A stretch of DNA of 64,000 nucleotides from an uncultured virus (IMG/VR IMGVR_UViG_3300014656_005142) (Duplodnaviria; Heunggongvirae; Uroviricota; Caudoviricetes). The notes under the pieces are model-generated. The model saw only the letters and a program-made list of their open reading frames with translations. It searched no databases and had not been told where the DNA came from. The DNA is taken from IMG/VR virus record IMGVR_UViG_3300014656_005142; one strand, given 5' to 3'. Position 1 is the first letter of the stretch. The number at the start of each line of letters is the position of its first letter. Position numbers and translations under genes: made by a program. Positions 23,274 through 51,473 of the stretch are shown one piece after another.

Positions 23274-23274
23274 A

Positions 23275-27356: not shown

Positions 27357-27397
27357 TGTTCAATGTTAGTAAATCAAATACAAAAGGAGATAGTATT

Positions 27398-27499: not shown

Positions 27500-27525
27500 C
27501 TTTAAACACAAAAGGAGATTAAAAA

Positions 27526-28848: not shown

Positions 28849-28884
28849 AAAATATGAATAATAAAGATAGGAGTTCAGTAAGTC

Positions 28885-29145: not shown

Positions 29146-29155
29146 GGAGAGATTC

Positions 29156-30151
29156 ATGAAGAAGAAAGCTCTTATAACTGGAATCACAGGGCAAGATGGA
29201 TCTTATCTTGCAGAATTTTTGTTACAGAAAGATTATGAAGTTCACGGAATTGTGAGGAGAGTTGCTATTGAAGATCCAGAGCATAGATTGTGGAGAATAA
29301 GGGGAATCTTAGATAAAATTATTCTTCATTCTGGATCCTTAGAAAATTATGCTATTCTTTTTAATATCGTTGATAAAGTTAAACCGGACGAATGTTATCA
29401 TCTAGCTGCTCAGAGTTTTGTTTCTTATTCTTTTGAAGATGAATTTTCTACTTTAAATACAAACATCAACGGAACTCATTATATCTTATCTGCTCTGAAA
29501 GAAAGAGCTCCTAGATGTAGATTCTATTTCGCAGGATCTAGTGAGATGTTTGGAAATGCTAAAGAAAGTCCTCAGAACGAAGACACCCCTTTTAATCCCA
29601 GATCATCCTATGGAATATCGAAAGTCGCAGGCTTCCATTTAACCAAAAATTATAGAGAAGCATATAATATGTTTACATGCTCTGGGATATGTTTTAACCA
29701 CGAGAGTCCTCGTAGAGGTTTTGAATTTGTTACCAGAAAGATAAGTTCTGGAGTAGCGAAGACTTTTTTAGGATTAGAGAAGAAGATTAAACTTGGGAAT
29801 ATTGATGCTGAAAGAGACTGGGGTCATGCTGAAGAATATGTAAAAGCTTTCTGGTTAATGTTACAACAAGATTATCCAGATGATTATGTGATAGCTACAG
29901 GAGAAACTCATTCTATTAAAGAATTTTTGGATATAGCTTTTTCTTATGTTAATCTTAATTGGAAAGATTATTTAGAAATTGATCAGAATTTATATAGACC
30001 TTCTGATATAAATCAGCTAAAAGGAAATTCTAGTAAGGCCAGATTGAAATTAGGATGGTCTTATAATTATAGTTTTGAAGATCTTGTTGAAGAGATGGTC
30101 GACGCAGATATAAAATTATATAAAAAAAAATATAGAGAGGAAATGGAATGA
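29156..30151 (+). CDS. gmd: GDP-mannose 4,6-dehydratase
   Basis: ALITGITGQDGSYLAE, LAAQSFV, YGISK, NHESPRRG, RDWGHA; start set to ATG 29156. Confidence 0.96.
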   Translation: MKKKALITGITGQDGSYLAEFLLQKDYEVHGIVRRVAIEDPEHRLWRIRGILDKIILHSGSLENYAILFNIVDKVKPDECYHLAAQSFVSYSFEDEFSTLNTNINGTHYILSALKERAPRCRFYFAGSSEMFGNAKESPQNEDTPFNPRSSYGISKVAGFHLTKNYREAYNMFTCSGICFNHESPRRGFEFVTRKISSGVAKTFLGLEKKIKLGNIDAERDWGHAEEYVKAFWLMLQQDYPDDYVIATGETHSIKEFLDIAFSYVNLNWKDYLEIDQNLYRPSDINQLKGNSSKARLKLGWSYNYSFEDLVEEMVDADIKLYKKKYREEME

Positions 30152-31089
30152 AAGATCAATACAGAATCTCCTGTATAATTCCTACATTTCGTCATCATTG
30201 GGAGCTAGAGAACACAGTTTATTCTTTAGAAGATGCTCAGGTAGGAATTACTAAGAATGAATATGAAATTATAATAATCAATGATGATCCTAAAGATTTA
30301 GAAACTAGACAAGTGGCTATAGATTATTATCGTAAATTTAAAAATGTAAGATATATAGAAGTTTATGATGCTGAGAAAGTAGGAATTAAAAATTCCACTA
30401 GATGCGGTAATATAGGAGCTAAAAGAGCAAAAGGGGATATCTTGATAGTTATGGTAGATTGTTGTAGAATTCCTACTCCAGGATCTATAATGAAAACAAA
30501 AATAATGTTTGAAGCTAGAGGATTAAATATCTGCACTACAATTCCTCCTTATCACATAGGAACCCATTATTCAGATAGAAATTTTACTCCAGAAGAATGT
30601 AGAAAAGTTATGAAAGATTTAAACTGGAGAGAAGATCCTTATAGGTTATTTAAAGTAGCTGCGTATACAAGAATATCTAAGACAGGAATTATAGATGAAT
30701 CTACTTTTATGGGGATAAGTAAAGAAAACTTCATAAAAATAAGAGGATGGAATGAATCTTTTAAAGATTGGGATAGATATAATTTAGATTTATGGAGAAG
30801 ATGTACAAGAGTTCTTCCCGAAGGAGGAATAAATAATCAGAAAGTTAATTCTTCTGGAAGATGGGGGAAAGTAGGTTTAGGTCTAGAAGTTGTTAATATA
30901 GATTCTGAGGGAACCTTCCATCAACATCATGACATATTTGTTCCCAGAAATCATTCCAATTTCAAAAGAGATAATGAAAAAGTATGGCTCCAATATGAAA
31001 ATCTGGGAGAATGTGTTATAGCTAATATAGAAAATCCTAATTGGGGAGAAGGAGATATTGAAGAAATAGATTTAGGAGGATTATTATGA
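30148..31089 (+). CDS. Glycosyltransferase family 2
   Basis: ISCIIPTF, EIIIIND, NIGAKRAKGDIL, GWNESF. Confidence 0.82.
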   Translation: MKDQYRISCIIPTFRHHWELENTVYSLEDAQVGITKNEYEIIIINDDPKDLETRQVAIDYYRKFKNVRYIEVYDAEKVGIKNSTRCGNIGAKRAKGDILIVMVDCCRIPTPGSIMKTKIMFEARGLNICTTIPPYHIGTHYSDRNFTPEECRKVMKDLNWREDPYRLFKVAAYTRISKTGIIDESTFMGISKENFIKIRGWNESFKDWDRYNLDLWRRCTRVLPEGGINNQKVNSSGRWGKVGLGLEVVNIDSEGTFHQHHDIFVPRNHSNFKRDNEKVWLQYENLGECVIANIENPNWGEGDIEEIDLGGLL

Positions 31090-31274
31090 TCTTGGAGTTT
31101 ACAAGAAGTAACAATTCAAAAGTTTCTATAGATTCATTAAGTATAGAATCAGTTTCAGACTTAGATAACTATAGTAATCGTCCAGAACAGACTATAATAA
31201 GAACAAAAAGTGGAGAGAAAATTGTTGTAGTAGACTCATATTCTACAGTTATAGATAAAATTGACAGAACGTGA
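31086..31274 (+). CDS. FlbD-like small protein
   Basis: MILEFTRSNNSKV.I....IESV...TIIRTKSGEKIVV.DS...VIDKI matches the FlbD family pattern. Confidence 0.5.
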   Translation: MILEFTRSNNSKVSIDSLSIESVSDLDNYSNRPEQTIIRTKSGEKIVVVDSYSTVIDKIDRT

Positions 31275-31281
31275 ATCTTTT

Positions 31282-32076
31282 ATGAATCCTAAATATATAT
31301 TTTGTTCTACAACTCATTTTTCTGGATCAAAAGTTTTATCTTTTGCTTTCGGATTTTCGAAAGATTTCTTATCTGTTAGACTTGGAAATCCTACAAACAA
31401 TAGATTAGCTATAAGTCTCTATGATAGGGGAAAATTTGAAGAAATAAGAGAAATATTCGAAAAAGAGAAGATTATGGAGATAGAAAAATCTCTCTTTAAC
31501 TTGGAAAAGAAAAGATATTTTGAATCTGATCCTGATTTTATAAGAACTTTTACAAAAGCTGCGTGTGAATTTCTTAAAGGAAATATTGCCATTGTTCATT
31601 TAATTAATAATCCTGTGTATGTAAGTCTTAATATGCTTGAAAAGTACTCTGACCTTCTAGAATCTCTAATTTTTAATTCTAAATCAAGAATGAACATAAT
31701 TAAGCCAGATTTTCTTAAATATAGAGAGTACCAGCATAAATTTTTTAGAATTTTTTGGTATTGTTTAGAAACATATGCGAGATCTAAAGATCTTATTTCT
31801 AGGCAAAGAGATATTAAACACTATATCTTCTTCACGAAGTGGCTACTTATTCCCTTTGAAATAAGATCTTTACTAAAATCTTTAGAAGTTAGAATAGAAG
31901 ATGATAAGATAGAATCTATCAAGGAAGCTTTTAAAGCCGAGGAAGATCTTTTTTATTCGACAAAATTCAGTCTTTCTTTAGACGAAGCTAGAAAAATGGC
32001 ACTCAGGTTCGTGGACAAATTTGGAGATCAATTTATGTTATCTAAAGAGGAATGCTTGCAACTATTAGAATTATGA
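31282..32076 (+). CDS. Degenerate sulfotransferase-like protein
   Basis: YIFCSTTHFSGSKVL (PSB-loop-like), YFESD, IVHLINNP. Confidence 0.5.
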   Translation: MNPKYIFCSTTHFSGSKVLSFAFGFSKDFLSVRLGNPTNNRLAISLYDRGKFEEIREIFEKEKIMEIEKSLFNLEKKRYFESDPDFIRTFTKAACEFLKGNIAIVHLINNPVYVSLNMLEKYSDLLESLIFNSKSRMNIIKPDFLKYREYQHKFFRIFWYCLETYARSKDLISRQRDIKHYIFFTKWLLIPFEIRSLLKSLEVRIEDDKIESIKEAFKAEEDLFYSTKFSLSLDEARKMALRFVDKFGDQFMLSKEECLQLLEL

Positions 32077-32279
32077 AAAAAAATTCAAAAATAAGACATA
32101 CTCGTTACTGTAAATTTTGTAAATTTTATAATATCTGTGATAAGGAAGTTGATTGTTTTGATGGAGAATATTGTGTATGGTTTACTCATAATGATAATCT
32201 TGTTTCGATTCCAGAAAAAATTGAAGAGGAAAGGGGGGAGTGGAATATGGATCAATTTTGGGAGGATAATTACGAATGA
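32073..32279 (+). CDS. Small Cys-rich hypothetical protein
   Basis: CKFCKFYNIC..C..C; ATGA coupling. Confidence 0.55.
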   Translation: MKKNSKIRHTRYCKFCKFYNICDKEVDCFDGEYCVWFTHNDNLVSIPEKIEEERGEWNMDQFWEDNYE

Positions 32280-32479
32280 TGACTAGAAAAAGGATTGAAA
32301 TTATTTCTGATTTTCTTAAAGGGGATGAAGTGGGTCCTCAAAGATTATTGATATTAGAAGTTCTTCTTGATATTAGAGATATGATGATAGTTCCTGAGTT
32401 TTCTAAAGAAGATAATAAGACAAGAATATTAACTAATGCATATAAAATCACTAGAGGTTCATCGGGAGAAGAACCATGA
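32276..32479 (+). CDS. Hypothetical protein, inserted mini-gene
   Basis: Shares its first 12 nt with the next gene. Confidence 0.6.
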   Translation: MMTRKRIEIISDFLKGDEVGPQRLLILEVLLDIRDMMIVPEFSKEDNKTRILTNAYKITRGSSGEEP

Positions 32480-33063
32480 TGACTAGATCTGAATGGAGAA
32501 AGTTAACAAAAGAGAATAAAATATCTATTCATAGCAAAGGAAATTATCATAGTGATAGACATAATCTAGATATTTATATAAAACATGGACCTGAATACAT
32601 TCCCATGATAATAGAAACAATAAAAAGACATAATCCTGACATTTTTATAGAGCTAGGAACTTTCATGGGAGGATTGACTCTGGCTATTCATGAAGAATTT
32701 CCTGAACTTTATATCTATTCTTTTGATATTAAAGTAGAAATTGATCCTAAGATTATGTACATTTTTAATCCAGAAAGAATAGAATTTTTCGAGAAAGATC
32801 TTTTAACTGAAGAGAGTTCTACTCTCTTGAATATCTTAGATATGTTTGGTAGGAAATTGCTATATTGTGATAATGGAAAGAAGGCTAAAGAAATAAATAT
32901 GTACTCTAAGTATTTAAATAAAGATGATGTGATAGGATGTCATGATTGGTTTTCTGAATTAGAATATGAAGATGTGAAAGATGCTCTGGTTGGGTTTGAA
33001 CCTTTTTGTGAAAAGATGTGGGAAGAGAGTTATTTGCTTTCTAGATTTTGGATAAAGGAATAA
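32476..33063 (+). CDS. CmcI/Methyltransf_24-like SAM-dependent methyltransferase
   Basis: FIELGTFMGG, SFDI, YCDNG, GCHD. Confidence 0.75.
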   Translation: MMTRSEWRKLTKENKISIHSKGNYHSDRHNLDIYIKHGPEYIPMIIETIKRHNPDIFIELGTFMGGLTLAIHEEFPELYIYSFDIKVEIDPKIMYIFNPERIEFFEKDLLTEESSTLLNILDMFGRKLLYCDNGKKAKEINMYSKYLNKDDVIGCHDWFSELEYEDVKDALVGFEPFCEKMWEESYLLSRFWIKE

Positions 33064-33067
33064 GTAT

Positions 33068-33250
33068 ATGGACCAAAACATAATTGATAGAGCAGTAAAT
33101 ATAGCTACGAGGCAAGCATTAGCTGGCTATCCAGTTTCTAGGATAATTTGGATTCCTCCAAACACTTCAGCAGAAGATTTTTGTGGTAATTTTGTTATTG
33201 AAGAATGTCCACCATTAAGTGCAGCAGAAATATCTCCATGGGATAGATAA
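33068..33250 (+). CDS. Small hypothetical protein
   Basis: ORF track; flanked by a 9-bp repeat. Confidence 0.5.
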   Translation: MDQNIIDRAVNIATRQALAGYPVSRIIWIPPNTSAEDFCGNFVIEECPPLSAAEISPWDR

Positions 33251-33271
33251 TAAAATAAAGGAAGGTAGTTA

Positions 33272-34045
33272 ATGAAACTATCTATAATTATGCGCTGCTG
33301 GAATCGGCTTGAATATACTGTAAGATCCATAATCTCTATATCCGAATTATCTGGATTAGATAGAAGCGAATATGAAATTCTTTGTGTGGATCAGAATTCA
33401 ACCGATGGAACAAGAGAATGGCTTAAACATGCCTATAGTGAAGGATATTATTCGGTTGTTCCTGTTCTCTTAGAAGAAAATGTGGGAGATGGGCTAGGAA
33501 TGAATTATGGCATTAAAGTTGCTGAAGGAGAATTTATTTGCCAGCATGATTCAGATTGTGAATTAGTTACTCCTAATTATTATAAACATCTTATAGATTT
33601 ATATGAAGCCCTAGAAAAAGAAGGACATAAAATTTGTGCTCTTGGAGGGAGTCATAAACAAGGATTAGAAATTGATTCTGCCCCTTTTCGCTTTGGAAGA
33701 CAAAGATATGGAGATAGAAATTTTATTCATCTTTCGGGAAAAGAAGTAAATAAAGGGTCTGATGTTTATTTATTTACAAGAATATATATGGCAGCATGGG
33801 TAACTGCCAGTTTTATTTTTAGAAAAAAGTTTGGAGAGGAATTGGAATTTGGAAAAGGAATGTGTAATTCTTGGTGCGGTCATTTTTGGGATCTAGGCTA
33901 TACAAACTTTATATGTGAAAGTATTAAGTTTTATCATATTGATTCGGGAGAAACTGGAGCCCATATCCAAAAGCAATATGATAAATTCCCGAGCTATTCG
34001 TACATTTTTCGCCATTACCGAAATTTTATAAAGAAGCAGGATTGA
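33272..34045 (+). CDS. Glycosyltransferase family 2
   Basis: LSIIMRCWNR, VDQNSTDGT, ENVG...MNYG, QHDSD. Confidence 0.9.
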   Translation: MKLSIIMRCWNRLEYTVRSIISISELSGLDRSEYEILCVDQNSTDGTREWLKHAYSEGYYSVVPVLLEENVGDGLGMNYGIKVAEGEFICQHDSDCELVTPNYYKHLIDLYEALEKEGHKICALGGSHKQGLEIDSAPFRFGRQRYGDRNFIHLSGKEVNKGSDVYLFTRIYMAAWVTASFIFRKKFGEELEFGKGMCNSWCGHFWDLGYTNFICESIKFYHIDSGETGAHIQKQYDKFPSYSYIFRHYRNFIKKQD

Positions 34046-34048
34046 ATT

Positions 34049-34780
34049 GTGAGAGATTATAATTCAGTATCAATTCTTCTTCCCACTAAGGGAAGACAGC
34101 AAGTTCTTCTCAATAGCTTATTATCTTTAAGTGAAACACAAGGAGCTAGAGATCTTCTTGAAATTATTATTGTTGCAGATGATGATCCTGAATCTTTTGA
34201 AATCGCTAGTGATTTTCATTTTCAATATAGATTTAAATCATATAGAGTCTTTCTTTCTCCTGAAAGACTTTATCCTGTTAATGCTTTTATTCTAGCTTAT
34301 TCTCTTTGTGCTTCTAGATATTTTGCTTCGATGAATGATGAAAATACTTATAAATCTGATTGGCTTTTAAAAGCGTTAGATAGATTTGATAAAGAATTTC
34401 CAGATAAGATAGGAGTTCTTTCTCTATATGATATTAGAAAATCTGGTTTAATGCTTACAACTCAGGATTTTGTTAGGTATAATGAAAATGAATGGTGGAA
34501 CAAAGAATATAAGCTATACTACGCAGATGATGAGTTCACAATGAGAGCTATCCTTCTTGGAAGATATGCATTCCAGAAAAATAATGGAGTTTTTCATGAT
34601 ATAGAAATAACTAAAAGAATTTCTGCAATTCCTTGGGAAGAAAAGATTGCAATTAAGAAAGTTGATAGAGGTCTTTTCTATAAAAGGTCTGAAAGTAATT
34701 TTGGTCTCCCTGTAGAAAAAATATATAAGTGGGAAGGTCTAAGGGAGATTAATCTTTCACTAAAGGGGGAAATTAAATAA
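34049..34780 (+). CDS. Glycosyltransferase family 2
   Basis: VSILLPTKGR, EIIIVADDD, MNDE, YYADDE. Confidence 0.85.
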   Translation: MRDYNSVSILLPTKGRQQVLLNSLLSLSETQGARDLLEIIIVADDDPESFEIASDFHFQYRFKSYRVFLSPERLYPVNAFILAYSLCASRYFASMNDENTYKSDWLLKALDRFDKEFPDKIGVLSLYDIRKSGLMLTTQDFVRYNENEWWNKEYKLYYADDEFTMRAILLGRYAFQKNNGVFHDIEITKRISAIPWEEKIAIKKVDRGLFYKRSESNFGLPVEKIYKWEGLREINLSLKGEIK

Positions 34781-35775
34781 TGAAAGAAGATTTTGATATT
34801 TTTAGAGATAAAAGAATTCTCATAACTGGAGGTACAGGCAGTTTCGGTAATGCTCTTGTTGATCGGCTTTTAGAACTTAGAACTAGGCAGATTATAATTT
34901 TTAGCAGAGATGAAAAGAAACAACAAGATATGTCCATTAAATATTCTGGAAAAAATCTTCTTTTTATCATAGGGGATATAAGAGATAGAAGAAAATTAGA
35001 AAAATCTTTTAAGAATATAGATTATATTTTTCATGCAGCAGCTTTGAAGCATGTTCCTATAGGAGAACTTTATCCTGAAGAAGTTATTAAAACGAATATC
35101 ATAGGAACAAAAAATGTTATAGAAGCTGCTGAATTATGTGGGGTTAGAAAAGTAGTAAATTTCAGTAGCGATAAAGCTGTTTATCCAGTTAATGCATATG
35201 GGATGAGTAAAGCTCTTGCTGAAAAGCTTGTTTGTGCTCATGGGGGGAACACAGAATGTATTAATTTGAGATATGGAAATGTCCTTGGTTCTCGAGGGTC
35301 TGTGATTCCCATATTCTTAAATCAGATAAGAAATAATCAACCTCTAACTATTACTAATCCAAGAATGACTAGATTTCTTCTTCTTCTTAGAAATGCTGTT
35401 TCTCTATCTCTAATCTGCGTTAGCGAGGGAAGACCTGGAGATCTATATGTAATTAGATCTCCAGCATGTACTATTGAAACCCTAGTTAATGTTATTAAAA
35501 AACTTTTTGATAAATTTCGTGGAGATGGAGAAATTCTTGTTAAAGAGATTGGAATTAGGCCAGGAGAAAAGATTCATGAAACTCTTCTTACAGAAGAAGA
35601 AGTTTCTAGGAGTAATTCGGGAGGTCGTTTTGGGATTGAATTTACGAGAGTTTTTTCTGTAGATAGAAATAGTTGTGGAGATTTTTCTAATACAGAACCG
35701 TTTACTTCAGAAAATGCAGAAAGATTTTATGAGAATGAAACTTTAAAAATATTATTGGAGGCTAAAATATTATGA
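34780..35775 (+). CDS. UDP-GlcNAc 4,6-dehydratase/epimerase (FnlA/CapE/WbjB-like)
   Basis: ITGGTGSFG, SRDEKKQ, HAAALKHVP, DKAVYPVNAYGMSK, RYGNVLGSRGSVIP, MTRF, GIRPGEKIHE. Confidence 0.92.
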   Translation: MKEDFDIFRDKRILITGGTGSFGNALVDRLLELRTRQIIIFSRDEKKQQDMSIKYSGKNLLFIIGDIRDRRKLEKSFKNIDYIFHAAALKHVPIGELYPEEVIKTNIIGTKNVIEAAELCGVRKVVNFSSDKAVYPVNAYGMSKALAEKLVCAHGGNTECINLRYGNVLGSRGSVIPIFLNQIRNNQPLTITNPRMTRFLLLLRNAVSLSLICVSEGRPGDLYVIRSPACTIETLVNVIKKLFDKFRGDGEILVKEIGIRPGEKIHETLLTEEEVSRSNSGGRFGIEFTRVFSVDRNSCGDFSNTEPFTSENAERFYENETLKILLEAKIL

Positions 35776-36836
35776 AAATAGGAATAACTGGAGCAAATGG
35801 TTTTATAGGAAGTCATCTCTGCAAGAAAATAAAAGATCCTATAGTTTTCAAGGGAAATCTTTTAGATTTTGATGCTGTTAAAGATTTTGTAAAAGAATGT
35901 GATATGATATACCATGTAGCTGGAAAAAATAGAGAAATAGAAGGAGTTATATTAAAAAATAATGTTTTAGGAACAAGAAATATAATTCAATCTATGATTG
36001 AACAGAATCATTTTCCTTATTTAGTTTTTCTTTCTTCTACTCAAATTGAATGGAATTCTCTTTCTGAATATGCAATATCTAAGAAAACAGAAGAAGACTT
36101 AATAAAAAGTAATTTAGATAATCATCAGTATTGTATATATAGAATTCCTAATGTCTATGGTCCTGGATGCAAACCTTTTTATAATTCTGTAATTTCAACT
36201 TTCTGTTATCAAATAGCCATAGGAGAAGAACTAACCATTAATGATTCAGATTCAACTAGAGAATTTATTTTCATAGACGATCTTGTTTCACAAATAACAG
36301 GAGAAGAAAGAAGGGGAAGATTTGTTAGAGTTTGGGGAGAAGTGATGAGTATTGGCCAAGTAGTTTCAGCCTTATTGAAAGAAGAAAATATAACTGCGAG
36401 TGAATCTGAATGCATTAATCTTCAAAAAACTCTTGAATATTATAAAAGAATACATGGAATATTTCCTGTTCATGAAAACGAAACTGGATCTTTTCAGGAA
36501 TTGGCTCATGATGATGATGTTGAATTTGCACAGTTAAATATTTTATCTATTAACCCAGGATGCACAAGAGGAGATCATTATCATAAAGAAATTCATGAAT
36601 GGTTCTGTTGTATTAAAGGATCTTGTTTGTTGGAATTAGTGGATGTTAAATCTGGCAAATTATCTTCTATAGTTTTGGATAGTTCGAAGAGAAAATTTTA
36701 TAAAATTGAAAGATTTCAAAATCATAAATTGGTTAATCGCAAAAATGAAATTTGTGAGATTTTAATTATAACAAATAGGAAATTTGATAAAAATAATCCT
36801 GATACATTTAAGATGGAGATTAGAGAATATCTATGA
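35772..36836 (+). CDS. SDR + C-terminal cupin sugar epimerase/reductase (FnlB/CapF/WbjC-like)
   Basis: GANGFIG, RIPNVYGPGCKPFYNSVISTFC, PGCTRGDHYH..EWF, NPDTF. Confidence 0.88.
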   Translation: MKIGITGANGFIGSHLCKKIKDPIVFKGNLLDFDAVKDFVKECDMIYHVAGKNREIEGVILKNNVLGTRNIIQSMIEQNHFPYLVFLSSTQIEWNSLSEYAISKKTEEDLIKSNLDNHQYCIYRIPNVYGPGCKPFYNSVISTFCYQIAIGEELTINDSDSTREFIFIDDLVSQITGEERRGRFVRVWGEVMSIGQVVSALLKEENITASESECINLQKTLEYYKRIHGIFPVHENETGSFQELAHDDDVEFAQLNILSINPGCTRGDHYHKEIHEWFCCIKGSCLLELVDVKSGKLSSIVLDSSKRKFYKIERFQNHKLVNRKNEICEILIITNRKFDKNNPDTFKMEIREYL

Positions 36837-36910
36837 ATCTTTCTATTCTTCTTCCTACAACTAACAGAACTTTATTTGCTTATTCTTGCCTTTCTTTATT
36901 GTCAGATTAG
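36833..36910 (+). pseudogene. 25-codon remnant of a GT2 glycosyltransferase N-terminus
   Basis: MNLSILLPTTNRTLFAYSCLSLLSD* resembles VSILLPTKGRQQVLLNSLLSLSE of 34049; ATGA-coupled to upstream gene. Confidence 0.55.
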
Positions 36911-36922
36911 AGTTTGTAAAAA

Positions 36923-37654
36923 ATGTTAAGATATAAGAAAAGAAGATTTATTCTCATATTGGGGCATGGGAGAAGTGGGACAACTCTGTGTGCAAGTTTA
37001 TTAAACATGATTCCAGATATTAATATCGCATTTGAATATTTAAATAGAGAAATTGTGGGAGAGGAATTTGATGCAGGGAGGCAAGACAGAATAGAGAAAA
37101 GTCTTCCTCTTTCTTATACTGGAAATAAAATAGTTATTCATAATGGATTATATTTTGAAAATATTATTAAATGTTACAAAGATAAAAGTTGGATTTTTCA
37201 TAATAGATTTGATGAATTGAAGGTTATTTTTACTAAAAGAAATCCTATTAATGTAATTGTTTCTGAAAAGATGAAACTAAAAAATAAAACAACTGAGGAT
37301 ATTTCTATTGATATTCTTGTGGAAAATTATATTTTTGCAGAAAAGATGATTCAAGAATTGAAAAGGTTTTTCTTAAAATATTATGTTTTTGATTTTGAGA
37401 AGATTGTCATGTGTGAACTTCACAGATATAAACTTTTTGAGTTTGTAGGCGAAGAATATTTGCCTATTTTTTCAGACACTTATAAGGGAGATGGAGAATA
37501 TAAGTATGGCTCTATTCATTCTAGTAATATTCTTTTTGGGAAGTTTGGGAAGTACCCTTATTCTTGGGAGAGTGAAATATTAAGTGCTTTTGATGCAAAA
37601 AGGTTTTGGCCTTGGCAATCTTTTGAATGTAATTTGGAAGTAGAGAATGAATAA
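36923..37654 (+). CDS. Sulfotransferase family protein
   Basis: LGHGRSGTT PAPS-binding loop; KVIFTKRNP...S. Confidence 0.8.
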   Translation: MLRYKKRRFILILGHGRSGTTLCASLLNMIPDINIAFEYLNREIVGEEFDAGRQDRIEKSLPLSYTGNKIVIHNGLYFENIIKCYKDKSWIFHNRFDELKVIFTKRNPINVIVSEKMKLKNKTTEDISIDILVENYIFAEKMIQELKRFFLKYYVFDFEKIVMCELHRYKLFEFVGEEYLPIFSDTYKGDGEYKYGSIHSSNILFGKFGKYPYSWESEILSAFDAKRFWPWQSFECNLEVENE

Positions 37655-38426
37655 TTTGAGAGAAGATCTTTTTGTTTTTATAGTAAGTCATGGAAGAAGT
37701 GGATCTAGTGCTTTATATGGATTTCTAAATCTTTTTTCTGAATTGAATATAGCTTTTGAAGAAAGTAGTCCATATGTATTTGATAATCATTCTCATGTTA
37801 ATTATGGAATTGGAAATTTTTCTTTTAATCATAAACTTATTATTAATAATAGACTGCCATATGAGTTTAATGGAAATAAATTTGTGTTTAATAGATTTAT
37901 ATGTCCAGGAGAAAGAGTGATTGAACTTTATAAAAGAAGATTGCTTCTTTTTCATGATAGATTTACAGAACTTAAAGTTATAATATTAAAAAGAAATCCT
38001 CTTGATACAATGACTTCTATGTATATGAGAAGATTCTTATCTCTTCCAGGAAAGCATAATCTCCTTTCTCCTCACCATCCTGATCTAAGTATAAAGTGGG
38101 CTGTTTCCAATTGGGTCACTAATGAAATTCAAATGAGGAAAGTGGAATCCTTTTTTGTTCCTCATTTTAAGTTAGATTTTTATGACTTTGTAGATAATGA
38201 TGGTTTAAAAGAGGATCTTATTAATTGGATTGGAGTTGAATTTGATCCTTCTTATCTTAATAAAAAAGTTAGAACTGAAGCTTATGGAAATAGTTCATTA
38301 TCTCAAGATAGAATGAAGTTTCGTGAGGGAGGAGATTATAAGATGGTAAGAGAAAAGATAGAAGAAGAAGCTGTTAAAATATTATCTGGAAAAGAAGAAT
38401 TATTATGGATACTAGAAAAAAAATAA
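37647..38426 (+). CDS. Sulfotransferase family protein, paralog of 36923
   Basis: SHGRSGSS; FHDRFTELKVIILKRNP..S. Confidence 0.8.
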   Translation: MNNLREDLFVFIVSHGRSGSSALYGFLNLFSELNIAFEESSPYVFDNHSHVNYGIGNFSFNHKLIINNRLPYEFNGNKFVFNRFICPGERVIELYKRRLLLFHDRFTELKVIILKRNPLDTMTSMYMRRFLSLPGKHNLLSPHHPDLSIKWAVSNWVTNEIQMRKVESFFVPHFKLDFYDFVDNDGLKEDLINWIGVEFDPSYLNKKVRTEAYGNSSLSQDRMKFREGGDYKMVREKIEEEAVKILSGKEELLWILEKK

Positions 38427-39472
38427 TAAAGTTTATAGACTATTCTTTTCAAAATCGATTTCAGCTCACGGAAAGTTACGACGATTCTAATTCCATGAGA
38501 TATTTGAGTAGAGATTTCGATATAACTGTTATCGGAAGATTTAATATCCAGGCTACAGAAACTCATGTTATTAAGCCCTTATTTGGAGGAGAGTATAAAG
38601 TCACTTTTCTCCCTTCAAGATATTCAAGAGAACAAGTTCTAGAATTCTTTACTTATATTAATCCTAGTGTGTTCCATTTCCATGGTAACCATTCTTGGAA
38701 AGATTCTCTTTTTTATGTTTCTTCTTTAAAGAATTTTATCCCCACTATCAGAATGATATTTTCTCCTGCGGGATCTTCTTGTGGAACAGAAGAATTTCTT
38801 AAATATTTTAATAAAGTGATTGTTAACCATCCTTTGCAAATACAAAGAATGAGATGTGATCCTAGCAAAGTAATCGTTAGAAAAAGATCTGCTGATCCTC
38901 TTGTCTTTTATCCTGTAGATGTTATTGATGAGATCTATGATTTTGTATTTGTCTCTGGATTTGTTCCTCAGAAAAGAATAGATTTAATGATAGATTTTGT
39001 AAAAGAGACTCCTTATAATCTAGTGATTATTGGAGACTTTACTAGAACAGAAGAGCATTTTAAGCAGATAGTTAACAAAGTTAACTCAGAAAATTTAGGC
39101 AAGAAGATTTTTCTTCATAATTTTATAAAACAAATAGATTTATCCTTTTTTCTTGGAAAATGCAAGGTATGGGTTTGGCCGAATATCCGTCCGGAAAATC
39201 CAGAGACGACTACAAATAGAGCCATAATAGAGGCTCTAGCTTGCGGTCTACCGTTGTTAGTTGGAGAACGTGCGTTTAAGGATTCCGATTTCATAAGGGA
39301 AGGATTTAATGGATACAAGTATTGTGATTTAAATTCTTTTAAGAAATATGCAGATATTTGCATTTTCGACCATGAGAGAATGGGAAAAGCTTCTAGAAAA
39401 TTATCTAAACAAAAGTTTGATTTTAGAGAGAACTTTATAAACTTTTATAATAATCTTTATTCTTCTATATAA
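38405..39472 (+). CDS. Glycosyltransferase family 4 (GT-B)
   Basis: FVSGFVPQKRID, IIEALACGLP, GFNG; true start may be the downstream ATG. Confidence 0.85.
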   Translation: MDTRKKIIKFIDYSFQNRFQLTESYDDSNSMRYLSRDFDITVIGRFNIQATETHVIKPLFGGEYKVTFLPSRYSREQVLEFFTYINPSVFHFHGNHSWKDSLFYVSSLKNFIPTIRMIFSPAGSSCGTEEFLKYFNKVIVNHPLQIQRMRCDPSKVIVRKRSADPLVFYPVDVIDEIYDFVFVSGFVPQKRIDLMIDFVKETPYNLVIIGDFTRTEEHFKQIVNKVNSENLGKKIFLHNFIKQIDLSFFLGKCKVWVWPNIRPENPETTTNRAIIEALACGLPLLVGERAFKDSDFIREGFNGYKYCDLNSFKKYADICIFDHERMGKASRKLSKQKFDFRENFINFYNNLYSSI

Positions 39473-39482
39473 TTTATGAAAA

Positions 39483-39695
39483 ATGAGACCATTCCCTATA
39501 AAACTTAATTATAATTTAGTTCCTGATATTGCTAAAATTCACAGATATCTGTATTGTGATTTTTATTCTAAGTGCCTGAATAAATCTATTAAAAAAAATT
39601 GGAAAACTTTTTCGTGTGTTGAATGTGGTATATTTAAAAAACACAAAAAGGAAATAAGTAAAAATGGAAATAGCCAAAAAAATTTATTGGAATAA
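39483..39695 (+). CDS. Small Cys-rich hypothetical protein
   Basis: YC..Y.KCL....W..FSC.EC. Confidence 0.6.
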   Translation: MRPFPIKLNYNLVPDIAKIHRYLYCDFYSKCLNKSIKKNWKTFSCVECGIFKKHKKEISKNGNSQKNLLE

Positions 39696-40434
39696 GAGAT
39701 CTGAGACTTATAATTTATTAGATTCTGTAGGAACAAGACAGGCTTATAGGATCGCTAACATCGTTAAGATGTTTTCTATTAATAATCCTTTCGTTGTGGA
39801 CGTGGGTTGTGGTCCAGGAATTATTTCTAGAATTGTTAAAGAAAGATTAAGAACTTCTAAGGTTTTAGGAATAGATATTTCTGAAAGGATGATAGATTTT
39901 GCTAAAAGATCTATTATTAATAACCTTGGATTTTTAGAATCTGATTTTCTTGATGATTCTTTGCAGAAACATCTTAATAATAGAGTAGATGTTTTTATAA
40001 TGAGTCTTTTCATGCATCATATGGCTGATGGAAAAGATCTTATTGTTCTTGAAAAATCTTATGAACTTCTTAAAAATAATGGATATATATTAGTGGCTGA
40101 AGCTGTTCCTCCTGAAGATGAAATTCTTGGAGAATATAAGCTTATATTTTCCTTTAAAGAAACTCGTAATTGCTATATTCCATCTAATCTAATTTCTATG
40201 TTAAGGAAAGTGGGATTCATTGGAGTAAGATTTGTAGATTACCCCTTTAAGATTAAATTGAAAAATTGGCTGAATGATAAAACTCTTTCTGAGTGGAGAA
40301 AAGGGTTAATATATGATCTTCATGTAAATGCGACTCCTCAATTTAAAAAAGCTTACAATATGGTTGCTTTTCCAGGGGGAGACTATGAATTGACTTGTAA
40401 AATGTGTCTTGTCTGGGGGCAAAAGAGGGTTTAG
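39664..40434 (+). CDS. Class I SAM-dependent methyltransferase
   Basis: VDVGCGPG, GIDISERMI, FMHH, LKNNG. Confidence 0.9.
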   Translation: MEIAKKIYWNKRSETYNLLDSVGTRQAYRIANIVKMFSINNPFVVDVGCGPGIISRIVKERLRTSKVLGIDISERMIDFAKRSIINNLGFLESDFLDDSLQKHLNNRVDVFIMSLFMHHMADGKDLIVLEKSYELLKNNGYILVAEAVPPEDEILGEYKLIFSFKETRNCYIPSNLISMLRKVGFIGVRFVDYPFKIKLKNWLNDKTLSEWRKGLIYDLHVNATPQFKKAYNMVAFPGGDYELTCKMCLVWGQKRV

Positions 40435-40483
40435 TTTACGAAAAAAGTATAATATTTTATAAACTAAATGCTGGGGGGGAGGG

Positions 40484-40675
40484 ATGATCAGAAAAGAGTT
40501 ATTAGATAAGCATAGACAGTTGCTTATACAAGAAATTGAAATCTTGCTGGAGCAATTTGAAGAAAACACTAATAAACAGGTCGGGAGTATCTCGTTCATA
40601 AGAATCTTGACGGGGTTAAAGTATCCCCAGAAGGAGATTGAATATTTAGTCAGTGCCGAGGTGGTGGAAGGGTAG
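40484..40675 (+). CDS. Small hypothetical protein; 3' end overlaps the tRNA-like RNA
   Basis: GGAGG SD; ORF track. Confidence 0.5.
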   Translation: MIRKELLDKHRQLLIQEIEILLEQFEENTNKQVGSISFIRILTGLKYPQKEIEYLVSAEVVEG

Positions 40676-40768
40676 ACACTAAGCCTGATAGTTGGAGGGA
40701 CCAGATCAATGGCAATGCAGCAGGTAGCACGCAACTCCGACATGCGGGTTCGAGTCCCGCCCTCGGCA
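40655..40768 (+). ncRNA. tRNA-Leu-like RNA with non-canonical, enlarged anticodon/variable domain
   Basis: Acceptor GCCGAGG/CCTCGGC+A, D arm TGGTGGAAGGGTAGACAC, T arm GCGGG-TTCGAGT-CCCGC; 64 nt between D and T arms with no standard anticodon arm; no encoded CCA. Confidence 0.75.
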
Positions 40769-40791
40769 ACAAAAAATAATAGGAGGATTAT

Positions 40792-41166
40792 ATGAATGAA
40801 AATAAAGAAAAATTTAATATGACTTCAATATTAATTGTTCTTATGTTTATGGCTCTACTTTTATCTGGATTAATTAACTCTTATTATACTGTTAGAAATA
40901 ATGGTGATATTAAGTTTCTTCATTCTTCCATAATGTCTTTCCAAGATCATGTTTTGAAATTAAAAGGTTCAAATCCACCTGCAATAACAGTTGGAAGATC
41001 AGATAAAGTTGACATTATCACAACGAGTAGTAAAATATATGTTCAATTAGAAGCGAAGAAATTATTTCCTGATGATGAAGAAGAAGAAAAAGATCTAGAG
41101 AAAAAAGCTAAGTCTTCTAAAGAGGAGAAAAGTAATGGGAAAAGAAATAAAAAGGATAATAAGTGA
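40792..41166 (+). CDS. Membrane-anchored hypothetical protein
   Basis: N-terminal hydrophobic helix; AGGAGG SD. Confidence 0.65.
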   Translation: MNENKEKFNMTSILIVLMFMALLLSGLINSYYTVRNNGDIKFLHSSIMSFQDHVLKLKGSNPPAITVGRSDKVDIITTSSKIYVQLEAKKLFPDDEEEEKDLEKKAKSSKEEKSNGKRNKKDNK

Positions 41167-41290
41167 ATTCAGAGGTCTTGAAAGAGCTATTGTTGCATTT
41201 ATATCGTTTGTGTTAGTTTTTTTCTTGGTTATCATTCCTTGGGTGTATGGGTGGGTAATGTTAGCGAAAAGATGTGGATTTCTGAATTGA
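41135..41290 (+). CDS. Small membrane protein (51 aa, not in ORF track)
   Basis: MGKEIK...AIVAFISFVLVFFLVIIPWVYGW; GAGGAG SD. Confidence 0.55.
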   Translation: MGKEIKRIISEFRGLERAIVAFISFVLVFFLVIIPWVYGWVMLAKRCGFLN

Positions 41291-41291
41291 T

Positions 41292-41471
41292 ATGACAAAA
41301 GCTATTTTTGATATATGTTCAAGATGTAGAAAATATGGTAGATTTGAAAAAAGAGTAATTGTTGATATGAGAAGATATTTCTGTAATTCCTGTAGGGCTG
41401 CTCTTTTCTCTAAGAATAAATGTGAAGATTATGAGAAATGGAAATTATATGTTTATAGAGAGGATAAATAA
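41292..41471 (+). CDS. Small Zn-finger protein (59 aa, not in ORF track)
   Basis: CSRC...CNSC; fills the gap before cysC. Confidence 0.55.
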   Translation: MTKAIFDICSRCRKYGRFEKRVIVDMRRYFCNSCRAALFSKNKCEDYEKWKLYVYREDK

Positions 41472-41473
41472 AG

Positions 41474-41809
41474 ATGATATTCTGGATAACAGGAAAAGCT
41501 AAATCTGGTAAAACCACTTTAGCTTACAGAATGGCGAAGCAAATAAAAGGAATTGTTCTTGATGGAGATGATGTTAGAAAATACTTTCCTGAAGAATATG
41601 ATTCTATGAGCATATATAGGCATCTTGAACGAATAACTAATTTTGCTCTTATATTAGAGAATCAAGGATTTAATGTTATAATCTCGTGCATTAGTCCAGA
41701 TAGATCTATTAGAAAATATTTTCAAAGAAAATTTGAGAGTTGTATAGAAATCTGCCTTCCTTTTGGGACAATGTGGGAAGGAACTAAATATGAATATCCT
41801 AAGGATTAG
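41474..41809 (+). CDS. cysC: Adenylylsulfate (APS) kinase, short form
   Basis: IFWITGKAKSGKTTLA, LDGDDVR, LENQGFNVIISCISP..R; lid region shortened. Confidence 0.8.
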   Translation: MIFWITGKAKSGKTTLAYRMAKQIKGIVLDGDDVRKYFPEEYDSMSIYRHLERITNFALILENQGFNVIISCISPDRSIRKYFQRKFESCIEICLPFGTMWEGTKYEYPKD

Positions 41810-41844: not shown

Positions 41845-41877
41845 ATAGACCCCTCCCCGGAGGGGTCTATCTCTTTT
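41845..41877 (+). terminator. Intrinsic terminator ending the glycan region
   Basis: ATAGACCCCTC-CCCG-GAGGGGTCTAT hairpin followed by CTCTTTT. Confidence 0.75.
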
Positions 41878-41891: not shown

Positions 41892-44213
41892 ATGAAAATA
41901 ATAGTAGATTCAGTTAGAGGAAAAATATTTGATTGTCCTAAAGATTTAAGTAAGAATCTTTATACTTTATGTTCATATAGACATCCTCAATATCAATTTT
42001 CTAATGCTTATTTAAATGGAGTTTGGGATGGATATATAAGAAAATATACTACAAATAATTCTTTTCCTTCTGGGTTGTTATTCAGAATAACTCAATTTCT
42101 TAATAAGAAAAATATAAAATATGAATTATTAGATACCAGAAAGAAATTTAAGATTGATGAAAAAGTTGTTCTGGAGAATATAGAAAAGTTTGGTCTTATT
42201 TTGAGACCTTATCAAATAGATGGCCTTATAATGGGGATTAATAATCCTTATATGATTTTCTGGTTTGCTACTGCTTCTGGAAAAACTGTTGTGTTTTCTT
42301 CTCTTATTACTGCATTTAAAGCAAAAAATAAGTTTAGAAAAACTCTTATTCTTGTGGCTTTAACGGATTTAGCTTTCCAGCATAGAGAAGAAGTGGGAAA
42401 ATTACTTGGAACCAAGATGGGTCTAATAGAAGAAGGCAGGTTTGAACCTGAAGATATAACTGTATCTGTAATTAATACTTTATGGAATAGAGCAATTAAA
42501 AAGAAAGACAATAGAGTTCTTAAGTATCTTGAAAATGTGGAATATCTTATAGTGGACGAATGTTTTGATGGAAAACAAGTAGTTTTAATGCCAGATGGGT
42601 CTCAGAAAATAATAAAAAGAATAATAGAGGATAAAGATGAATACGTTATGTCTTTGTCTTCTAATGGAATTCTAGAAAAGAAAAGAGTTCTTAGGTGGAT
42701 TAGTAGACCTTATTTTGGAAAAATGCTGAGAATCAAGTTTAGAAATTTAAGAGGAAAGTATTCATCTATAGTTTGTACTCCTAGCCATAAATTTTTTCTT
42801 GAAGATGAGTCTTTGGTGAGAGCAGATAAATTAAAGAAATTTGATTGGGTTAAATTTGTAGTAAGAAGAGATAAAGGATGTCTTGTTAATTTAAAATCTC
42901 AAAATGGAAGACATTTAAGTGGAGGAAGAAGAATATTTTGTATTACTTTGTCAAAATTAAATGAACACATTTCTCATCTATCTACCCTTTCTGGACTTTC
43001 TAAAAAGATTGTTAAAGAAAAAATTGATCGCATACTAAAAATTATAGATTTAAAAAAAGGAAGAATTGCTGAGCATCTTTTAGTTTATGCTTTGGTTCAT
43101 GATATTCATTTGTTAGAAAAAAAATTGGGACATGATATAAATATTCATCATGTTAACAATAATCATTATGATAATAAAATAGAAAATTTAGAGTTGCATT
43201 CACATGGAGATCATTCTAGAATTAGTGGAAATCAATATTCTTCTTCTCCAAAAGATTTGGAAATAAGTGAAGCTTTTGTTCTTTCTGTTGAAGAAGTTAA
43301 AAATGTGCAAACTTTCACTAAATGTGTTTACAATTTAGAAATAGAAGAGACTAATAGATATTTTGTAAATTGTGTTCTTGTTTCTAATTGTCATCATGTT
43401 GTTGAAAGTAAGATGATGAAACAAGTGATAAATAAATGTAAAAACACAATAGCTAGACACGGATTTTCCGGTTCTCCTTATAGCTTAACCATTGATGATA
43501 TAGAGTTAGAATGTTATACAGGCCCTCCTCTTTCTAAAGTAACTCTTTCTGATTTAATTAGAGAAGGGTGGATTTCGAGACCTCATGTTTATATTCTCAA
43601 ATATGAATTTCCTTTTATGAAGGGAGTTTATTATCAAACTGCTTATAAAAAAGGAATAGTTAAAAATGAAATTAGAAATAGAATGATAGTAGATATTTGT
43701 AAGAATAAATATCTAAATTCTGATAAGACTATTTTGATTCTTATTCGAATGATTCAGCATGGTAAAATATTAAAAGATATGTTGTTAGATTCTGGCATAG
43801 AAAACTCTGATTTAGAATATGTTCATGGAAGCACTCCTAAATTTGTAAGATCTGGAGTTAAAGAAAAATTTAGAAATAAGGAAATTAGAATAGTTATAGC
43901 CAGTCAGATATGGAATGAAGGGGTTAATATTCCTTCTGTTGATGTTCTCATTAAAGCTGATGGAGGAGGAGGGCATGAGATTAAAGGAGATAAAGGAGTT
44001 AGATCTGTAGTTCAGCAGATTGGAAGAGTTTTAAGAAAACCTTTAAATGGAATAGATGTGGATACTAGTATAGAAAATATTGTTGAGATATATGATTTTA
44101 ATGATAATATTCATAAAGACTTAGCTCGGCATTCTAAGAATAGAATTGATACATACAAAATGGAAAAGGAGTTTGTTATTCATGAAGAAAAAGGATATAA
44201 GAAATGTCTTTAG
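41892..44213 (+). CDS. SF2 DNA helicase (UvsW-like) containing an intein
   Basis: LRPYQ, ATASGKT, DE|intein|CHH, GFSGSP, EGVNIP, QQIGRVLR. Confidence 0.9.
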   Translation: MKIIVDSVRGKIFDCPKDLSKNLYTLCSYRHPQYQFSNAYLNGVWDGYIRKYTTNNSFPSGLLFRITQFLNKKNIKYELLDTRKKFKIDEKVVLENIEKFGLILRPYQIDGLIMGINNPYMIFWFATASGKTVVFSSLITAFKAKNKFRKTLILVALTDLAFQHREEVGKLLGTKMGLIEEGRFEPEDITVSVINTLWNRAIKKKDNRVLKYLENVEYLIVDECFDGKQVVLMPDGSQKIIKRIIEDKDEYVMSLSSNGILEKKRVLRWISRPYFGKMLRIKFRNLRGKYSSIVCTPSHKFFLEDESLVRADKLKKFDWVKFVVRRDKGCLVNLKSQNGRHLSGGRRIFCITLSKLNEHISHLSTLSGLSKKIVKEKIDRILKIIDLKKGRIAEHLLVYALVHDIHLLEKKLGHDINIHHVNNNHYDNKIENLELHSHGDHSRISGNQYSSSPKDLEISEAFVLSVEEVKNVQTFTKCVYNLEIEETNRYFVNCVLVSNCHHVVESKMMKQVINKCKNTIARHGFSGSPYSLTIDDIELECYTGPPLSKVTLSDLIREGWISRPHVYILKYEFPFMKGVYYQTAYKKGIVKNEIRNRMIVDICKNKYLNSDKTILILIRMIQHGKILKDMLLDSGIENSDLEYVHGSTPKFVRSGVKEKFRNKEIRIVIASQIWNEGVNIPSVDVLIKADGGGGHEIKGDKGVRSVVQQIGRVLRKPLNGIDVDTSIENIVEIYDFNDNIHKDLARHSKNRIDTYKMEKEFVIHEEKGYKKCL
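42561..43388 (+). mobile_element. Intein (276 aa) with HNH homing endonuclease
   Basis: Starts CFDGKQ; block B CTPSHKF; HNH IHHVNNNHYDNKIENL; ends VYNLEIE..YFVNCVLVSN|C. Confidence 0.92.
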
Positions 44214-50513: not shown

Positions 50514-51473
50514 ATGGCAAAAGATAAAAAGAGCAAGAAAGGAAAGCCTATTAAGGCTAAGGAAGAGGTTGAGGAAGAGGAGTTAGATCTGGATGATCTG
50601 GATCTAGAAGATGATGATCTAGAACTAGAAGCGGAGGAAGAAGAAGAGGAGACTGAAGAAGAAGAGGAGACTGAAGAAGAAGAGACTGAGGAAGAAGAAG
50701 AAGTGGAAGAGGAAGAGGAGACTGAGGAAGAGGAGACTGAGGAAGAGGAGACTGAGGAAGAGGAAGAGGAGACTGAGGAAGAGGAAGAGGAGACTGAGGA
50801 AGAGGAAGAAGAAGTAGAAGAGGAAGAGGAACTTCCTAAAGAAAAGGCTCGTTTTCCTGGAAAAAAGATTATTCCCCAAGTTAAGAAAATAGCATCATCG
50901 GGAACTAGAGTTAAGAGATTAGAGGTCAATGGGCAAAAAACCGTCGTCCCTATTGCTTTTAAGCCTCTGATTTTAGCTCTTGGGAAGTTTGGGAAAGTGG
51001 TTCATAAACCTTCTATAACAGTTTGCCTCCTTGACGGTAAAGATGGGGCTAACTTTGCGAGCATTGTTCAGCAAGAATCTGCAGATACGGTAACTAATTT
51101 GTGGCTTAATAAATCTATCCTGAAAGATGGAAGAAAGTTTGTTCCTGCAGGAAAGAAACTGGTTGCCATGTGTGGTTTTTGGAAAAAGGGAGAAGTGATC
51201 ATTGCTGTGAAAGTGAAGATTGGCCAGGATCAAATAGATGATGCCATAGAGTTAGTTAAACAATATGCAGAGTGGTTTAAAGCGAATGTTCTTTCAGGAT
51301 CCAAAAAAGCTTCTAAGAAAGAGGGGACTGAAAAGAAAGAAGTCAAGAAGGTTGTGAAGAAAGTGGCCAAGAAAGTAGAAGAGGAAGAAGTGGAAGATGA
51401 AGAGGAGGAGGTAGAAGAGGAGGTAGTGGAGAAGAAGAAAGTCAAGAAAATTAAAAAGAAAGTCAAGAAATAG
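50514..51473 (+). CDS. Acidic/basic low-complexity protein with central DUF5655/YjbR-like domain
   Basis: Long Glu/Asp tract, Lys-rich ends; FKPLILAL..NFASIVQQ..LWLN..GFWKKGEV..QIDDAIELVKQ. Confidence 0.65.
   Translation: MAKDKKSKKGKPIKAKEEVEEEELDLDDLDLEDDDLELEAEEEEEETEEEEETEEEETEEEEEVEEEEETEEEETEEEETEEEEEETEEEEEETEEEEEEVEEEEELPKEKARFPGKKIIPQVKKIASSGTRVKRLEVNGQKTVVPIAFKPLILALGKFGKVVHKPSITVCLLDGKDGANFASIVQQESADTVTNLWLNKSILKDGRKFVPAGKKLVAMCGFWKKGEVIIAVKVKIGQDQIDDAIELVKQYAEWFKANVLSGSKKASKKEGTEKKEVKKVVKKVAKKVEEEEVEDEEEEVEEEVVEKKKVKKIKKKVKK
50634..50830 (+). repeat. Tandem GAGGAAGAGGAGACT-type repeats encoding (E)nT units
   Basis: 15/18/21-nt repeat units visible directly. Confidence 0.85.

Follow-up and report, generated by a model that had tools for sequence, protein, structure and literature searches.

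A solitary RNA gene with a tRNA-Leu frame and no anticodon arm in an uncultured groundwater phage

The DNA analysed here is a 64,000-nt stretch of an uncultured virus of the Caudoviricetes (IMG/VR record IMGVR_UViG_3300014656_005142), referred to below as the window, and our subject is one short RNA gene within it. The gene reads GCCGAGG-UG-GUGG...CAC, continues with a 64-nt centre and closes with GCGGG-UUCGAGU-CCCGC-CCUCGGC-A. Its outer parts are the acceptor, D and T arms of a leucine tRNA, and the centre takes the place of the anticodon and variable arms. As judged from its sequence, the gene is real, constrained and non-decoding. It is of the same kind as RNA1 of phage T5 but further derived, with no anticodon-loop sequence, a rebuilt extra arm and a solitary position.

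The Rfam tRNA model (RF00005) spans the gene end to end with 34.2 bits, against a gathering threshold of 29 (E 0.0023 for the whole window, 7.9e-06 in a local search). All stems of the frame pair perfectly (acceptor 7/7, T stem 5/5, D stem 3/3), and the alignment places 58 nt at the anticodon-arm site, where the model has 18 positions. ARAGORN in default mode calls no tRNA anywhere in the 64 kb, no tmRNA is found by its -m mode or by Rfam, and neither program detects a further tRNA-like gene in the window. The anticodon arm of a decoding class II tRNA-Leu, a 5-bp stem with a 7-nt loop carrying U33 and starting 1 nt past the D stem, is absent: the best 5+7+5 hairpin anywhere in the centre forms four of five pairs and has no U33. 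The first-pass annotation had described tRNA-Leu-like acceptor, D and T arms with discriminator A around a 64-nt segment free of any 5-bp stem and 7-nt loop, and both halves of that description are borne out. The motifs it listed (GTTGGAG, CTCCGAC, GCCTG, CAGGT, CCA/TGG and TGC/GCA) all lie where it placed them, and the searches run here agree with it, ARAGORN finding no ordinary tRNA and Rfam a frame above cut-off with an oversize insert.

Two tRNA-Leu(UAA)-like genes on viral contigs, L018 and L032, have frames that match that of the window RNA almost base for base. The acceptor position 4:69 is G-C in the window RNA and C-G in both relatives, a compensated change, and the D loop has the same length as in L018. 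Both relatives carry insertions (10 nt in L018, 21 nt in L032) 5' of an intact CTTAAAA anticodon loop, and both score higher with Rfam (50.6 and 42.5 bits, respectively). Each is solitary within ±2.5 kb. The T-arm 25-mer of the window RNA also occurs in ordinary tRNA-Leu genes of viral contigs.

What sets the gene apart from a degenerate tRNA is its conservation in three contexts. A single metagenome scan returned one contig with an exact 25-mer, L008 (1381 nt), which derives from a different phage and carries the gene at 113/114 identity. The sole difference, C40761T, turns the G7-C66 pair into G-U, so that pairing is kept. On either side of the gene the two sequences share 14 of 40 positions, which is the random level, and the flanks also differ in GC content (0.43–0.45 in L008 versus 0.30 in the window). 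The only other feature common to both is an APS-kinase-like gene, with 51–52% identity in protein and 68.6% in DNA. A third context, record 17 of X15 (508 nt), contains positions 40654–40772 with no differences (119/119); its upstream flank resembles that of L008, and its downstream flank is unlike both others. Conservation starts 1 nt before G1 and ends 1–4 nt past A73, and as far as these sequences tell its borders are those of the RNA gene. Conservation of the centre had been named beforehand as a test. Its 64/64 identity across the three contexts argues strongly for selection on the centre, or at least for its transfer between phages as an exact unit.

Searches of viral contigs with other parts of the gene returned little. 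Exact 25-mers of the 5' part and the centre occur in none of them, and the pattern running from GCAACTCC to the T arm is found in L032 only. A pattern containing GCCTGATAG matches 39 loci; in 38 the motif belongs to unrelated coding sequence, and no locus is called as a tRNA.

L008 has three copies of the 15 nt that open the RNA gene (GCCGAGGTGGTGGAA), all on the minus strand, at 597–611, 436–450 and 322–336, approximately 115–160 nt apart. The copies have 0, 1 and 1 mismatches, and 0.04 copies would be expected. The two upstream ones form stop/start junctions (...GGAATGA) of small open reading frames (ORFs) that end in ...EVVE. This arrangement looks like repeated cassette insertion at the 5' border of the RNA.

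Table 1. Features in and around the RNA gene (window coordinates)
Feature	Position	Strand	Remarks
tRNA-Leu-framed anticodon-less RNA gene	40655..40768	+	114 nt; CCA not encoded; Rfam RF00005 full length
Acceptor stem, 5' strand GCCGAGG	40655..40661	+	7/7 pairs with 40761-40767; discriminator A at 40768
Class II type D arm	40664..40679	+	3-bp stem GUG/CAC, loop AAGGGUA with GG; Rfam alignment
Central domain in place of anticodon and variable arms	40680..40743	+	64 nt; identical in all three contexts
GCCUG, candidate anticodon-stem remnant	40683..40687	+	pairs with CAGGU 40721-40725 around 33 nt
GUUGGAG, predicted 7-bp helix	40691..40697	+	pairs with CUCCGAC 40735-40741
T arm GCGGG-UUCGAGU-CCCGC	40744..40760	+	Rfam alignment
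63-codon ORF	40484..40675	+	last 7 codons and stop (40673-75) inside 5' part of RNA gene
124-codon ORF	40792..41166	+	AGGAGG at 40781-86; begins 24 nt after RNA gene; no family hit
Short APS-kinase-like P-loop gene	41474..41809	+	PF01583, E 7.2e-11
Terminator-like hairpin	41845..41870	+	first such signal 3' of RNA gene

Two stems can be drawn in the centre. Folding under a fixed frame gives a minimum-energy structure with the 7-bp GUUGGAG/CUCCGAC helix, which encloses two 3-bp hairpins (CCA/TGG and TGC/GCA). The second stem, GCCUG/CAGGU, is joined to the D stem by a 3-nt link and is a candidate remnant of the anticodon stem. In alignment, the stretch GCAA-CUCC corresponds to the variable arm of L032 and L018, namely to its loop and 3' strand. 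In the window RNA the old 3' strand, CUCCGAC, finds its partner 38 nt upstream, in GUUGGAG, and not in the adjacent AGCAC, and the self-contained variable-arm hairpin of a tRNA-Leu is not present. From the sequence, GUUGGAG is the predicted partner, inside an expanded anticodon loop, of the former variable-arm strand. The two stems interleave, and formed together they would build a pseudoknot clasping both former arms. The centre matches no Rfam family at E values up to 10, intron families included.

The gene is covered by sequence from an RNA library. A 440-nt contig from metatranscriptome X12 spans positions 40571–40990 with one difference and crosses the RNA gene unspliced. A joined form was absent from four public runs, one of them RNA, in which contigs can miss rare forms; parts of the stretch uncovered in these runs were not counted as evidence, and short pieces matching 40741–40775 belong to ordinary tRNA-Leu genes of other organisms. 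Promoter-like sites number 16, against 12.2 ± 3.8 expected, and none stands out beside the RNA gene. No promoter or terminator signal beyond chance lies next to it. Downstream, within approximately 35 nt of its 3' end, each of the three contexts has a ribosome-binding site and a start codon.

The protein-coding surroundings are largely anonymous. The 63-codon ORF has no Pfam or PHROG hit and no similarity to the ORFs of L008, where the upstream ORF ends before the RNA gene. Its C-terminus reads ...AEVVEG because it runs into the RNA gene, and RNase P cleavage at G40655 would deprive its mRNA of the stop codon. Either this reading frame is spurious, or expressing it competes with maturation of the RNA. 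The minus-strand ORF at 40306–40743 and the small ORFs around the RNA gene likewise give no family hits.

The RNA gene sits near the end of an unusually long block for glycan synthesis and sulfation (approximately 22000–41800), which encodes GT2, GT9 and GT1 transferases, a GDP-mannose dehydratase, epimerases, a glycerophosphotransferase, two sulfotransferase-like proteins and, as its 111-aa member, the APS-kinase-like protein. Homologues of this last gene directly follow the RNA in L008 and in the X15 record. In all, 35 viral loci encode relatives of the kinase, and they have only the kinase gene in common with the window. ARAGORN together with a T-loop regular expression found a Leu-framed element in 0 of the 35, and Rfam, run on 20 of them, detected three ordinary tRNAs in two loci. 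Because none of these loci has such an RNA, the association of RNA and kinase is confined to the present lineage.

The window as a whole is part of a large uncultured phage. It includes a tape measure gene (1600–7326) and, after the glycan block, replication genes for an intein-bearing UvsW-like helicase, DnaC-like and DnaB proteins, a primase, a thymidylate synthase and DnaE. Its ORFs lie overwhelmingly on one strand (81 of at least 60 aa on the plus strand versus four of at least 100 aa on the minus strand), and its GC content ranges from 0.27 to 0.37. The public runs that contain the stretch are groundwater metagenomes from 11 studies; runs in which it has a small share were not used to narrow the habitat further. 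A blastn search of 40400–41200 against 50,697 phage records gave no match, DnaE is at most 29% identical to that of cultured phages, and the UvsW-like helicase has no relatives among the IMG/VR viral contigs. The helicase gene (41892–44213) is split by an intein splicing domain (PF14890, residues 231–499). Directly 3' of the tape measure gene, at 7344–8710, lie an S-adenosylmethionine decarboxylase-like gene (phrog_3125) and then a DUF3326 gene (E 8e-66). A short segment of L008 matches several overlapping places around 50700–50810 by blastn, which indicates a tandem repeat inside the ORF at 50514–51473; this ORF lies in the bin of highest GC skew.

Leu-type arms around a long centre are not confined to the window. 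A gapped pattern describing this layout matched 40 viral contigs, of which default ARAGORN calls five. A complete Leu-type frame (at least 6/7 acceptor and 5/5 T-stem pairs) is present in at least 26 of the 40, a lower bound since the register was off by one for some contigs. The centres of the Leu-framed matches form 18 groups unrelated to one another. At the sequence level, variable centres in a constant frame suggest a carrier with cargo.

Several related loci deserve mention in their own right. Nine viral contigs (L009, L010, L019, L020, L034, L040, L043, L045 and L048) carry one common tRNA-like RNA with the acceptor AGTCAGG/TCTGACT, a 6-bp stem and a 33-nt loop with a hairpin inside it. 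Such differences as the copies show, which are few, keep pairing, for example U-G to U-A, and the family is large enough for a covariation study. L039 and L042 have well-formed Leu-type frames, long extra arms and non-Leu anticodons in normal 7-nt loops: TGG in L039, by sequence reading and ARAGORN intron mode, and GCG in L042, which default ARAGORN calls tRNA-Arg. Were leucyl-tRNA synthetase (LeuRS) to charge them, Pro or Arg codons would be misread. On chromosomes, tRNA-Leu-like genes that encode CCA occur in metagenome-assembled genomes of Dehalococcoidia (L049 and L052 in one genome, L051 in another; approximately 3001–3102, minus strand). They contain a 32–35-nt hairpin within the anticodon loop, bracketed by TTG...CAA, and score below the Rfam tRNA cut-off. 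Between L049 and L052, which share a genome, the hairpin shows a change by which an A-C mismatch is repaired. The portions of the literature available to us held no description of such short hairpin inserts in bacterial tRNA-Leu genes.

On balance, we favour the interpretation that the RNA is matured like a tRNA and that its invariant centre, displayed on a stable tRNA frame, would be what acts. Transcription would take place as part of a long plus-strand operon. Host RNase P and 3' processing would then excise the RNA at the exact tRNA ends, and CCA would be added. We infer this route because the acceptor/T/D frame is intact and conservation stops sharply at the tRNA ends. The frame would confer maturation, stability and possibly LeuRS binding. 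The centre, probably an anticodon-stem remnant (GCCUG/CAGGU) clasped by the 7-bp helix to the former variable-arm strand, would act on a protein or RNA partner. More tentatively, and with less confidence than in the preceding, we suggest that phages may use the Leu-tRNA frame as a natural 'tRNA scaffold', in which a constant frame for maturation and nuclease resistance presents a swappable central cargo. The window RNA would then be one clasp-held cargo, acting in trans on a host or phage factor during infection and possibly tied to the sulfated-glycan module. A bolder form of this idea, in which the RNA is charged with leucine and passes it on to an acceptor outside the ribosome, seems to us highly improbable at best.

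A number of observations weigh against the interpretation of the centre as an active, folded part. The near-identity of the copies might reflect recent transfer of the element between phages and not constraint. Because the three near-identical copies yield no covariation, the fold of the centre is unproven. Its minimum energy (−14.2 kcal/mol) is close to that of shuffled sequences (−12.6 ± 2.9; z −0.55), the whole element folds with a z of −1.14, and a helix of at least 7 bp appears in 44 of 500 dinucleotide shuffles. Both stems proposed in the first-pass annotation thus exist, and the longer one is recovered in the constrained minimum-energy fold, but the fold of the centre has no statistical support over shuffles. 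Regarding a partner, the window contains no antisense match of at least 11 nt to the RNA, and its two antisense 10-mers compare with 2.6 expected, so that no target rises above chance. The metatranscriptome contig gives neither ends, abundance nor strand, and DNA carry-over may account for it. The gapped pattern was built on Leu arms and cannot show a preference for Leu frames. Lastly, processing, CCA addition and stability are all read from the shape of the gene.

Among the alternatives, the one that survives best, although we consider it unlikely, is that the frame does the work and the centre is inert, the main idea of the first-pass annotation. The RNA would then accept leucine or bind LeuRS, EF-Tu or a nuclease as a mimic, serving as a decoy, a sponge or an aminoacyl donor. 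The gene contains the elements listed, reportedly by Asahara and co-workers, as identity elements for bacterial LeuRS, namely A73, U8, A14, A15 with U48, G18G19 and a class II D arm. Larkin et al. are said to have found in 2002 that E. coli LeuRS still charges a minimal tRNA-Leu from which both the anticodon arm and the variable arm are missing. The location in a glycan-building and sulfation module makes an aminoacyl donor conceivable; however, no aminoacyl-transferase family (Fem, L/F-transferase or similar) was found among the 36 + 47 ORFs scanned. An inert centre would not be expected to stay identical at 64/64 positions while the neighbouring protein is at approximately 52% identity, and an RNA without an anticodon loop would presumably make poor bait for anticodon nucleases or A-site sensors. 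The non-decoding tRNA mimic put forward in the first-pass annotation therefore stands in part: the Leu-type frame is intact, the anticodon arm is absent and the centre is conserved in three contexts, but the absence of the loop disfavours a decoy for anticodon nucleases.

We regard it as improbable that the gene is only a cis-acting processing signal, comparable to tRNA punctuation or a 't-element', at which RNase P and RNase Z would cut a polycistronic mRNA and release an RNA without a task of its own. Its position between same-strand ORFs, with no convincing promoter or terminator and with a ribosome-binding site and start codon close downstream in every context, agrees with this idea. Such a signal would need the frame only, however, and leaves the perfect conservation of the centre unexplained. 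The downstream genes also differ (the window continues with the 124-codon ORF, L008 with the kinase gene), and cleavage at 40655 would cost the 63-codon ORF its stop codon.

An intron-bearing tRNA gene, spliced to a decoding tRNA, is more improbable still. In its intron mode ARAGORN offers a tRNA-Thr(agt) with a 33-nt intron, a strained model that needs a shifted D arm and a C-C mismatch. When all single excisions were tried, none produced a canonical cloverleaf with a 1-nt linker between D stem and anticodon stem. A 3-nt linker allows four models, each removing 26 nt and all built on GCCUG/CAGGU, that yield a 5-bp stem and a 7-nt loop, and in favour of an intron only five of 300 shuffles do equally well. 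Among the anticodons that such models produce (UGC, AGC and AGU), none is that of a Leu tRNA. The 18-nt variable region left over would not form its own hairpin. A group I intron would be far longer than the insert, which also matches no intron family, and the RNA-library contig is unspliced, with no joints seen. We know of no bacterial enzyme for such tRNA splicing.

Even less credible is a decaying tRNA-Leu pseudogene. The lost anticodon arm, the variable-arm 5' strand that no longer pairs with the old 3' strand and the unremarkable folding energy of the centre are what decay would leave behind. All frame stems are nevertheless perfect, the single change keeps pairing, and identities of 113/114 and 119/119 stand beside flanks at random level. 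As the element is conserved in three contexts with sharp RNA-gene borders, a drifting pseudogene is ruled out.

We give hardly any credence to a DNA-level attachment (att) or recombination site derived from tRNA-Leu. Three viral contigs (L001, L002 and L005) do carry att-like 3' halves of tRNA-Leu with the shared 25-mer, and the GCCGAGGTGGTGGAA copies upstream in L008 imply that the 5' border was once a recombination junction. Unlike an attP, though, the element has 5' and 3' frame halves around a non-tRNA centre; its conservation has the boundaries of an RNA gene, and no integrase is found among the scanned window ORFs. Equally implausible is a leader with a small ORF, in which GGAGGG and, 9 nt on, the ATG at 40709 would open a 28-codon frame ending in a TGA at 40793–95 that overlaps the next ATG (region 40694–40795): the same frame continues in-frame into the kinase gene of L008 (1–282, minus strand), but it apparently stops earlier in the X15 record, its 'peptide' would be encoded by the T arm and acceptor strand, GGAGGG is buried in the predicted 7-bp helix, and an open frame this short is expected by chance in a GC-rich stretch.

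Even pooled, the processing-signal, intron, pseudogene, att-site and small-ORF explanations are an unlikely outcome. Two of them had been raised in the first-pass annotation. Its intron-bearing tRNA is disfavoured by the absence of canonical excisions, the strained ARAGORN model and the unspliced contig, and its decayed tRNA or att site by 113–114/114 identity beside approximately 52% in the neighbouring protein and by the presence of both frame halves. We accordingly return to the RNA with a tRNA frame and a putatively active centre.

The window RNA is of interest as a clear-cut case of complete loss of the decoding arm. It lies outside any tRNA cluster within 64 kb, in a glycan and sulfation operon. 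Its non-tRNA centre, identical in three phage contexts despite approximately 52% identity of the neighbouring protein, is evidence of selection or of transfer as an exact unit. If the class is a modular RNA platform of phages, it would represent a new layer of phage–host interaction and a natural counterpart of engineered tRNA scaffolds.

tRNA-shaped modules with non-decoding uses are known from the tRNA-like domain of tmRNA, from YrlA and from the t-elements of mitochondria and archaea. The YrlA model (RF02553) reaches only 12.7 bits on the window RNA, against a cut-off of 69, and covers 17 nt of the T arm. The tRNA-like part of YrlA is internal, whereas in the window RNA the frame forms the ends of the molecule. 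Bacterial class II tRNA-Leu shares with the window RNA the acceptor GCCGAGG, the D arm, the T arm and A73. Its centre measures approximately 33 nt and includes an anticodon arm, in contrast to 64 nt without one.

L032 and L018 have a near-identical T arm, acceptor and D arm, and their GGGAG-GCAA/GUAA-CUCCC aligns with GCAA-CUCC of the window RNA. They differ from it in retaining the full anticodon stem and CTTAAAA. L032 additionally shares the 9-mer GCCTGATAG, which may be chance given that 38 of the 39 loci with this motif are unrelated coding sequence.

Phages T5 and T4 provide the closest known counterparts, already annotated, and Rfam has no family for any of them. T4 rnaC (species 1, 139 nt) and rnaD (species 2, 119 nt; AF158101.6) are small stable phage RNAs of unknown function, the first of which ends in a tRNA-like T arm and acceptor. 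Unlike the window RNA, they are located where the tRNA cluster of T4 ends and lack a complete Leu-type frame, and in sequence they do not resemble it. In the T5 record (AY543070.1), rna1 (30501–30644, misc_RNA) and rna2 are annotated as 'tRNA-like stable RNA with unknown functions'. In the literature as far as it was accessible, which probably does not include the older T5 and T4 papers, we found no paper on anticodon-less Leu-type phage RNAs and none that explains the stable tRNA-like RNAs of T5 and T4.

The overall design of T5 RNA1 resembles that of the window RNA. Both are phage-encoded, both place a foreign insert in the anticodon region of a Leu-type acceptor/D/T frame, and neither is called as a tRNA by default tools. 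T5 RNA1 has a Leu(UAA)-type frame with an insertion of approximately 40 nt 5' of the loop, in the same place as in L018 and L032. Whereas T5 RNA1 keeps the anticodon stem and CTTAAAA and lies in a tRNA gene cluster, the window RNA has no anticodon-loop sequence, a 3-nt linker and a rebuilt variable arm, and no second tRNA-like gene accompanies it in the 64 kb. Outside the frame, the two have no sequence similarity, the insert included. The window RNA is thus a member of the loosely defined 'tRNA-like stable RNAs' of phages, of which T5 RNA1 and T4 species 1 and 2 are already annotated precedents and to which the window copy by itself adds one more member.

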